DNA from: Selaginella moellendorffii
Taxonomy: Eukaryota > Plantae > Lycopodiophyta
Assembly (NCBI RefSeq): GCF_000143415.4
Contig: NW_003314277.1
Span: forward strand, 1,516,493 to 1,580,492
Direction: 5' to 3'
DNA: 64,000 nt
The notes under the pieces were generated by a model, which saw only the letters and a program-made list of their open reading frames with translations, was not told the DNA's origin and ran no database searches. The stretch's first letter is position 1, and every line of letters starts with the position of its first letter. Positions 41,045-43,990 of this stretch are shown in pieces. Both the position numbers and the translations under genes were made by a program.

Positions 41045-43990
41045 CGTTGGATCATCTTCCAGCTAATCCCACTTGGTAGCCTGAGGTTCTTGGTGTTCAG
41101 CCACACCTTCTCCCCAGCTTGGAACTCTACGTCCCGGCGCTTCTAGTTCGCGTACTTGGTTTGCCTTTGTTGAGCCCGTTCCAAGGAATCCCTCACTAGA
41201 TTCCAAATGTTGAGTCTTTCCGCCGTGAATGCCTCCACTGCGGGTAACTCTCCATGATACTCGGCCACGCTGAGTTCCACAGTACCTTCAATAGCTCACC
41301 CATTGATGACTTCCCATGGACTCACCCCGATGCTCGAATGTGGTGAGTTGTTATAACACATTTCCGCAAGTCCCAAATGACTTACCCAATCGGTCTGGTC
41401 TCCTGAGACATAGCATCGCAAATAATCATCCAGCTTCCTATTCACCCTTTCCGTTTGTCCGTCTATCAAGAAGTGTTAGTGCCATCAACTTGACTTAATA
41501 CCCCATACCTGTCTGTGGGTGATAGGCTGTGCTGAATTTCAACTTGGTGCGATACTGTTTCAGGAGGGTTCTCCAGAACTTACTAATAAAGATTTTATCT
41601 CGATCTAAGATAATCTCCTCTGGCCTTCCCCGCACTCGAACCACTTGTTTGAAGAACAGCTTCGCCACACCTTCCGCATCCACTTCCGTTGTGGTGGGTA
41701 TGAAATGTGCCATCCTCGAAAATCAATCCACCACCATGAATATCGCATCGAACCCCTCGCTTGGGGGTAGTCCCATGATGAAGTCCATCGTAAGACATTT
41801 CCACGGACAGTCTGGAATTGGGATGCTTTGCAACAAACCCCCACTAGCCTTAGTCACGGCTTTGACCTGCTGACATATTAGACATGTCTTTACATAGTCT
41901 TGGACGTCCTTAGCCATATCTGGCCAATGGTACTTCCTCTTGAGTAAGCCCATCGTCTTGGGCACTCCGCCGTGTCCCGCAAGACGTCTGTCATGACACT
42001 TTTCTAAGGCTACCTTCCTTAGTCCCCCTTCTGGAACATACACCCTCGTTTGCTTGTAATAGATGAGTCCATTGTGTTTCGCATAGCCTGTTTTCTCTTC
42101 CATTGGCAGCTCACCTCTCTGGTGAGCTTCCCTTGCCTCTAGATTCCTCAGCAACACTTCTTGTGCTAGACCATCGTTCTCATATGCAGTCCGCACATCG
42201 TCCCAGAAGGTTGCTGTTGCGCTGGATATCGCCAACCTCAAGCTCGCTTTTCGACTTAGCGCATCCTCCACGATGTTGCTCTTCCCAGGCTTGTACAAAA
42301 TCTCGCAATCAAACTCGGCCAAGGCATTGACCCACCGACCTTGTTTCCCTCTCAGATCGGGCTGTGACAAGAAGTGTTTCGTTGCCACATTGTCTGTGTA
42401 AACCTTGAAGTGTCTCCCAAGGTAGTGTCGCCACTCTTTGAGCGCCTTGACCACCGCAAACAATTCCTTCTCGTGGGCAGGCCACTTCTGTTGAGCCTTG
42501 TCCAACTTCTTCGAGAAGAACGCTACTGGATGGTTGTCTTGCTTCAAAACCGCGCCCAACGCAAAGTCCGAAGCATCCGTTTCTACCTCAAAGTCCTTAC
42601 CAAAGTCTGGTAATGCTAACACGGGAGCCTTCATCAACTTCCCTTTGAGGTGGACGAATGCCGCCTCGCATTTCGCTGTCCATACCATCTTCCCTTTTTC
42701 GGTTTGGTCCGTTAAGGGCAGGGCTACTCTCGAATAGTGTCTGATAAACTTTCGATAGTAGTTGCATAGCCCCAAGAATGCCCTCAACTCATGTACATTC
42801 GATGGTCGCTCCCATTCCTGGATTGCTTGGACCTTCTCCAGGTCCACCTTGAGCCCATCCTAGCCCACCACATGCCCGAGAAACTTTACCTCTTGTTGAG
42901 CAAAGTCACATTTGCTCTCTTTAGCATACAATTTGTGTTCCCTTAGTTTCTCAAACACTTTCGCCAAGTGTTCGGCATGCTCCTCTAACGTCTCGCCATA
43001 GATCAGGATGTCGTCGATATAGACGACCACAAAGTGATCTAGATAGGGTACAAAGATGTGGTTCATCAGCGCTGAAAATGTTGCCGGCACATTGCATAGC
43101 CCAAAGGGCATCACCAGAAACTCAAAGCTCCCATACCTCGTTCGACAGGTTGTCTTCTCGACATCTTCCTCGGCTACCCTGATCTGGTAGTATCCTGACC
43201 TTAGGTCAATCCTCGATAAGTATTTTGCCTTTCCCAACCTATCGAACAGGTCCTCAAATCTTGGCAAAGGGTACTTGTTCTTCTTTGTATACTTGTTGAG
43301 CAACCGGTTGTCTAAACACATGCGCATAGAACCATCTTTCTTTTTCACAAATAACACCAGCGCCCCATACGGCGACTTGCTCAACCTAACATAGCCTTTG
43401 TCCACCAACTCCTCTAGATGGCACTTGAGCTCCTTGAGTTCTTTTTCGTTCAAACGATAGGGGGGACGAACCACCGCCTCAACACCCTCGACCAGCTCAA
43501 TCTTATGTTCTATCGGTCGTGCGGGGGGCAACCCCGCTGGTAGCTCCTCCGGCATGGTATCCTGGAATTGGTCCAACACCCGCTGGATCGCTAAAGGTAC
43601 TTCTTCCATTCCTGTCTTTTTGTCACTCTTCACCGAGAGTAAGCACAAAAAGGCTGCCTTAGTTCCTTTAGTGAGTTGTCCTCTCGTGGACACCAGGTTT
43701 AAGCAGGAATCTTTGGCCTTGCTTTGCCCTACCTTTAGATCCTGGGCTTCCACCCTAGATCTTCTTCCTTGGGCATTCGCCAGTACCACAAGGTTCCTAC
43801 CTTGTCCATGCAGGGCTACCACGAACCGATTGAACCAATCCATTCCGAAGATCACGTCAAATCCCGCCATATCCAACACAGTGAAATCCATGTCTACTTT
43901 CCATGTCCCTACTTCGACTCTCGCTTGTCGAAGTACCTCATCGGTGCTTTGGCTACCTTGAACAAACTCCCCGATAGTTTCTTGGGCGAG
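41045..43990 (-). mobile_element. Truncated Ty3/gypsy pol fragment (PR C-terminus, RT, RNaseH, INT) with in-frame nonsense codons and a 46-nt intron
   Basis: [60 protein letters not shown]. Stops at 42860, 41723, 41296 and 41143. No LTRs seen. Confidence 0.92.
41463..41508 (-). other. Spliceosomal-type GT-AG intron within the integrase coding sequence
   Basis: CAG ACA G|GTATGG...CACTAAC..TTCTTGATAG|AC GGA CAA ACG GAA AGG. Removal restores HPQTDGQTER exactly. Confidence 0.85.

Follow-up and report, generated by a model that had tools for sequence, protein, structure and literature searches.

The integrase of an abundant Ty3/gypsy retrotransposon family of Selaginella moellendorffii is interrupted by a real spliceosomal intron (intron 1), and this intron is family-wide, standing in the DNA of many copies. 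Intron loss is a textbook signature of retrotransposition. The spliced intron is kept in the DNA copies examined. In our view it is fairly probable that unspliced RNA is the substrate of reverse transcription and the spliced messenger the sole source of full-length integrase. The copy described here lies on the minus strand of the window, that is, the whole stretch of 64,000 nt that was analysed.

Domains and State of the Window Copy

Pfam and tblastn searches placed the upstream exon part at 41509..43960 (minus strand; upper end approximate). It encodes the protease in its C-terminal part, RT and RNase H, and then integrase with its zinc finger and two of the catalytic residues, the first and second Asp, with Pfam matches to RVP_2, RVT_1, RT_RNaseH, Integrase_H2C2, and rve, and the Ty3/gypsy domain order PR-RT-RNase H-integrase was confirmed. 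Exon 2, at 41045..41462 (minus strand), encodes the catalytic Glu and the C-terminal half of the integrase core; it was recognized by tblastn and matched Ty3 Gag-Pol at 1269-1389 (E 1.6e-4). The window copy has four in-frame stops, two upstream of intron 1 and two in exon 2. It is cut at both ends, at about 41020 and about 43960, and ends before the position of the C-terminal chromodomain; no gag homology or LTR pair was found around it. The window copy is thus a decayed fragment without LTRs of the family.

Position and Sequence of Intron 1

Intron 1 was placed at 41463..41508 (minus strand), in the integrase core, by its sequence and by its joint in RNA. An earlier note, made from the sequence, had described a 46-nt insert with donor, CTAAC and acceptor, and this was confirmed on the minus strand: the insert starts with GT, carries a predicted branch-point-like CTAAC at 41475..41479 (minus strand), with the branch A 14 nt from the intron 3' end, and ends with TAG. 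The Asp codon of HPQTDGQTER is cut after its first base, leaving G before the intron and AC behind it (phase 1). The split Asp is not catalytic; the catalytic Glu lies four residues further. Counted by hand, the Glu after the insert stands 35 residues behind the Asp of the L-D-R-D stretch, and a D-35-E spacing is characteristic of these integrases. The two catalytic Asp therefore lie on one side of the insert and the catalytic Glu on the other.

Without splicing, the frame reads HPQT-G-M-G-Y and meets the in-frame TAA at 41497-41495, the stop four codons in that had been predicted. The frame of exon 2, read through the insert, contains two stops. Since both the upstream and the downstream frame are stopped inside the insert, no single frameshift bridges it, and ribosomal frameshifting across the insert was ruled out. 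In tblastn, the alignment of an uninterrupted homolog broke exactly at the insert: its first part stopped with residue 490 at 41510, and its second began with residue 491 at 41463. D/N-G follows directly after the HP[QE][TS] motif in 221 of the 231 homologs having the motif; this, together with the exact 46-nt skip in RNA, agreed with the claim that splicing restores the motif exactly.

Among 200,000 random 46-mers of the element's composition, GT..AG ends arose by chance in 0.6%, and GT..YAG together with a branch-like motif in 0.02%. Intron 1 is U2-type by its GT..AG ends, its branch-like motif near the 3' end and its RNA joint; it is excised exactly from RNA, and the DNA retains it. In the window copy, AG is common to the end of the upstream exon and the end of the insert. 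Two host introns in the window, picked by eye, were 62 and 75 nt long, beside the 46 nt that the earlier note had taken to match the size of host introns.

Intron 1 showed no unusual fold (z = -0.28; z = -1.93 for its 126-nt context), and a structured RNA signal in it was unsupported. Folding also gave a possible 6-bp stem over the acceptor tract. No terminal inverted repeat was found in the insert and no second match to it within the 64-kb window. A central polypurine tract was rejected by eye, the purine run being absent.

Splicing of Intron 1 in RNA

Seven of 24 listed public sequencing runs were compared, and joints in RNA or DNA were taken from aligned reads or contigs. The sole joint listed on 41410-41559 ran from 41462 to 41509 and was reported as "skips 46, CT..AC", which is GT..AG on the minus strand. 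This exact joint was present in two of the four runs of one comparison: in the RNA run X24 as one raw read, and in X18, a run of another study that is only guessed to be RNA, as one contig of 1,083 nt at depth 9.4. X18 held the spliced contig only and no unspliced one. The junction joining 41509 to 41462 for which the earlier note had called was thus found, in one read and one contig.

The X24 sample comprised five matching reads from 12% of the run, and its spliced support was one read pair. The spliced read could also be recovered from the bin depths (17+47+40+8+38 = 150 nt). It differed from the window at family-majority sites, so the transcript came from another copy. The first mate of the spliced pair was on the plus strand; the other three reads were 99+% like the window, with the first mate on the minus strand. 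Both sense-type RNA observations were spliced; among these two, a very small number, the unspliced sense RNA required by the model was not seen. Contigs of X4 and X5, ending at 41543 and 41556, were identical to the window and unspliced. Host read-through or DNA accounts for them better, and they are thus silent on sense splicing.

In the DNA run X2, the 41462 to 41509 joint occurred in 0 of 1,755 contigs, not all of which bridge the junction. No intron-less joint was among the 15 of 18 joints listed for the DNA runs X1 and X14. Since contigs drop rare variants and some do not bridge the site, rare intron-less copies may exist.

Presence and Variation of Intron 1 in the Family

In X1, 14,524 contigs aligned to 41000-42400, of which 10,345 were 90-99% alike to the window, and the depth ran on through the insert. 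The summed depth, which is not a copy number, was 0.60 million in the insert versus 0.82 and 0.91 million beside it. Variants inside the insert were carried by 82-88 DNA contigs, and X14, another sample, showed the same. These public runs took the place of the genome BLASTN that had been proposed, and they showed the insert in many copies. The family-wide insert, together with its splicing in RNA, refutes two possibilities raised in the earlier note: an intron newly gained in a single copy, and filler DNA. X14 is labelled as another organism, yet it shares family variants with X1; it therefore probably contains host DNA or DNA of a very close relative.

Intron 1 occurs in subfamilies of 46 and 47 nt, with length variants of 45-47 nt across the family. 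Subfamily-level substitutions inside the insert reached 85%, 74%, and 53%, and 1-nt insertions 47%, 8%, and 4%. The acceptor was CAG in 85% (X2), 96% (X1), and 100% (X14) of the depth, the window copy having TAG. Relative to the window, donor position +4 differed in 53% and position +5 in 74%; most copies (74-100% of depth) lacked the consensus G at +5. The donor G and the acceptor G were changed in only 1.3% and 3%, similar to the background decay of the exons. With length changes common and these two bases kept, the length of the intron was free and its ends were kept while the family multiplied. In X2 no variant of at least 1% was listed at 41466-41482, a stretch that includes the CTAAC; one loose-end group of five contigs in X1 had an altered CTAAC.

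With the CAG acceptor, the last five bases of the intron equal the last five of the upstream exon. The statement that there is no target duplication was therefore wrong for most copies, which have the 5-nt direct repeat GACAG at both ends. The share of contigs running into unlike sequence was 0 in X2.

Selection and Phylogenetic Analysis

Thirty-eight exon differences (among the 40 listed of 265) were analysed, of which 32 were private to the window copy and six were subfamily-level. The private changes comprised 22 non-synonymous and eight synonymous ones and two at stop sites. Five of the six subfamily-level changes were synonymous, versus eight of the 32 private ones (Fisher p = 0.012), with a subfamily cut-off of 84% chosen by us and with all six subfamily variants lying upstream of intron 1. 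These results showed that selection continued to act on the coding frame upstream of the intron as the intron itself varied in length. Exon 2 was 29-39% identical to eight angiosperm homologs, and an uninterrupted element of like depth was 29-38% identical to seven of them.

The FastTree phylogeny of RT-RH-IN, with 32 rows, two dropped for short cover, held the window element and unlabelled relatives, labelled clade references being absent from the tree. The window element grouped with nine angiosperm single-ORF Gag-Pol-chromodomain proteins and P0147 at a support of 0.996. We take this branch to be that of the Galadriel/Galahad plant chromoviruses, a name used after PMC3350952.

Protein searches returned no close family member, the best match being 57% over part of the query and 50% over its whole length, and no close match to exon 2. 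No homolog ended at HPQT-G. A pattern scan of viral contigs for an intron at the same motif gave 0 matches. Three metagenome-contig matches to the pattern were taken as chance, none being a retrotransposon. Neither these scans nor the protein searches thus turned up another lineage with the intron.

Relationship to SM1-Galahad and a Predicted Second Intron

The available part of PMC3350952 describes SM1-Galahad of S. moellendorffii as hundreds of copies about 95% alike, with LTRs, PBS, and PPT. No intact copy was found there; the main ORF, of 1,295 aa, ends in the core integrase and is followed by two short ORFs, one of 316 bp and a final one of 309 bp that carries a chromodomain, and no TSD was determined for the published consensus. 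Its sister SM2-Galahad is intact, with one ORF of 1,577 aa and hundreds of copies (PMC3350952, same part). The window family shares with SM1-Galahad the host, a high copy number at about 95% likeness, the Galadriel-related position, and a main ORF that ends in the core integrase and is followed by an ORF of roughly 320 nt. The span between the first ATG in exon 2 and the TAA (41043-41041) is 321 nt, compared with 316 bp in the published ORF. Relative to SM2-Galahad, SM1-Galahad lacks 1,577 - 1,295 = 282 aa; in 45 long homologs the part from HPQ to the protein end has a median length of 271 residues, an approximate correspondence. The window family is thus probably SM1-Galahad, by layout rather than by sequence; neither the SM1-Galahad name nor the motif had a match in the supplement of PMC3350952.

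In that paper the pieces are separate ORFs, and its text contains neither "intron" nor "splic". The present data make the first break a spliced intron, and an intron is predicted at the second. The three published ORFs are likely three exons.

A second intron of about 52 nt is predicted from the sequence at 41044. Its 5' part, with a GTAAAA donor, occupies 41020..41044 (minus strand), the window copy being truncated at 41020. The TAA at 41043-41041, which closes the frame of exon 2, lies inside this donor-like site. The donor falls at codon 144 after the His of HPQ, just ahead of the conserved Y/F-x-GP-F motif; R/K-Y/F-x-GP occurs at about 145-147 in eight homologs. Seven contigs in X1 and one in X14 had loose ends before 41020, so the family extends past the truncation of the window copy; loose ends also occurred before 41066. 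In the X14 contig there is a CAG 27 nt further on. As acceptor it would give a 52-nt intron and place Arg-Phe/Leu at the R/K-Y/F-x-GP motif; this putative acceptor is read from the one contig. A diverged group of five contigs keeps the putative donor.

Comparison with Known Systems

Ogre elements (Tat clade, Ty3/gypsy) keep an intron in the DNA that is spliced for translation of the downstream Pol part, according to the accessible sections of PMC6317226, PMC12786077, and PMC3735527. The Selaginella family is Ogre-like in its working, with an intron retained in DNA copies whose splicing lets a downstream part of Pol be translated. It differs in place and clade: the Ogre intron, as described in those sections, lies in a spacer, about 274 nt long, that separates Gag-PR from RT-RH-IN, whereas the Selaginella intron has 46 nt, lies inside the integrase core, splits a codon and gates integrase only. 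With its intron in the integrase, the family is not of the Ogre type proper. The five supplementary files of PMC6317226 (17,418 characters) contained no match.

The Ty1/copia elements BARE1 and EVADE likewise keep an intron in the DNA, but their splicing closes Pol to make Gag, while here splicing opens the frame (PMC3735527 and PMC5580714, as far as accessible). The gypsy domain order and the frame-opening splicing set the Selaginella family apart from the BARE1/EVADE type. BARE1 packages a separate pool of unspliced, uncapped, non-polyadenylated RNA, and no DNA copy of its spliced form could be amplified (PMC3735527, same part). In Arabidopsis, the accessible part of PMC5580714 reports that no such conserved splicing was found in Ty3/gypsy elements. 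In Penelope-like elements introns survive retrotransposition, and for one such family of Selaginella a coding-region intron has been inferred; these elements, however, are not LTR elements, have no DDE integrase and transpose by another mechanism (PMC8557442, in part).

In the plant exceptions Ogre, BARE1, EVADE, CRR, and Bagy-2, splicing lies in gag, protease, RT or a spacer and balances Gag and Pol, as far as the sources consulted in part describe them. A cryptic intron of Tf2 is linked to silencing (PMC7175516, in part). The accessible parts of PMC2864245, PMC2911113, PMC7998251, PMC7175516, and PMC12477816 contained no case of an intron inside integrase. A literature search, outside which lay most subscription papers, Repbase, and Dfam, returned no report of an intron inside an LTR-retrotransposon integrase. 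Relative to the known plant cases, the new feature is the position inside the integrase catalytic core; spliced introns retained in DNA were already known from Ogre and BARE1.

Proposed Mechanism and Alternative Explanations

In the proposed mechanism, unspliced RNA would encode Gag-PR-RT-RNase H and an integrase cut before the catalytic Glu, and spliced RNA, probably of two introns, would encode integrase with the chromodomain. Splicing would then limit integration and not particle formation. If spliced RNA were reverse-transcribed, the intron would be lost and autonomous copies would result, so the copied RNA should be mostly unspliced. By analogy with BARE1, it would probably be a separate unspliced pool; alternatively, the region behind the early stop may stay free of ribosomes, favouring unspliced RNA as template. 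The splicing-gated family put forward in the earlier note holds in that the intron is family-wide and spliced and no intron-less DNA form was seen; selective packaging of unspliced RNA and a regulated splicing switch are possible as conjectures. We propose only tentatively, with somewhat more doubt than confidence, that the lineage gained and kept two short host-type introns, so that only unspliced RNA is copied and only doubly spliced RNA makes integrase with chromodomain, splicing acting as a gate on integration.

That the insert is a single-copy insertion, filler DNA, the landing of an introner or an assembly artefact is hardly credible. The 5-nt direct repeat does resemble a target duplication or repair microhomology, which bears on the origin of the intron only; the insert, however, is family-wide in two samples (X1/X2 and X14) and spliced in RNA, and it has no second match in the window, no contigs with unlike flanks in X2 and no terminal inverted repeat. 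Spread at the DNA level, in which the intron arose in one integrated copy that was then multiplied by segmental or tandem duplication or by a DNA transposon, would involve no purging RNA step and would agree with the published consensus for which no TSD was determined (PMC3350952, available part). The high copy number along the whole pol stretch (14,524 contigs in X1), the mostly synonymous subfamily coding variants and the LTRs, PBS, and PPT of SM1-Galahad given in the same source make it very unlikely.

An explanation by leaky splicing without any sorting of RNA assumes that splicing was rare where the family transposed and that intron-less copies were rare or lost. We think it distinctly unlikely: a donor that lacks the consensus G at +5 in 74-100% of the depth, and an acceptor tract that a 6-bp stem can cover, would suit it, but both sense-type RNA observations were spliced, X18 had the spliced contig only, and intron-less copies, which would be autonomous, should accumulate and were not seen in X2. 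Splicing might also be irrelevant, the insertion having knocked out the integrase of a family that was mobilised in trans, e.g., by the intact SM2-Galahad, with unspliced RNA still serving as template. The existence of this sister, intact in one ORF and present in hundreds of copies, beside an SM1-Galahad for which no intact copy was found (PMC3350952, available part), argues for this, as does selection seen only upstream of intron 1. A knock-out, however, would hardly be expected to leave an exact, frame-restoring GT..AG insert with a branch-like motif (0.02-0.6%); the intron ends were kept while the interior changed length, the decay of exon 2 is not beyond expectation, and a second intron-like break of the same logic would be another accident. 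We regard mobilisation in trans as unlikely, if worth weighing.

If retention of a spliced intron with copying of unspliced RNA is correct, only a few dozen bases distinguish the copied RNA from the integrase messenger, and the sorting of genomic RNA from messenger becomes directly testable. A family published as broken would be re-read as an exon-intron gene, and annotation may be calling such families dead. The intron gain appears recent, with its 5-nt direct repeat, and the intron-less sister family allows comparison. The family would be a natural system in which to watch intron gain and the discrimination of genomic RNA from messenger by 46 bases.

Surroundings of the Window Copy

Three neighbouring genes, of three compared, fell into 90% clusters together with named S. 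moellendorffii proteins. A host HemN-like radical SAM gene was identified at 39564..40901 (plus strand) by domain search and protein clusters. Its transcript likely reads into the fragment, on the antisense strand, to about 41543-41556, as indicated by the unspliced X4/X5 contigs identical to the window and by the three X24 reads with the first mate on the minus strand. At 40900-41556, the retrotransposon fragment may serve as the 3' untranslated region of the HemN-like gene. Upstream of the fragment, a stretch at 44778-45059 is duplicated at 48028-48295 (83% identical). Near 48028-48295, a broken reading frame on the minus strand contains a P-loop-like GNSGVGKS and has no match in Pfam.

The window holds another Ty3/gypsy element, unrelated to the first, at 1687-6480 (plus strand), with 154-nt terminal repeats 90% alike. 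Its HPQSDG motif is uninterrupted and its integrase contains one stop. A pyrimidine-rich stretch near 3300-3500 parts its protease from its RT, which is in a different frame. At 34070-34144 (plus strand), a cytochrome P450 gene has a probable 75-nt intron that is largely a (CT)n run.
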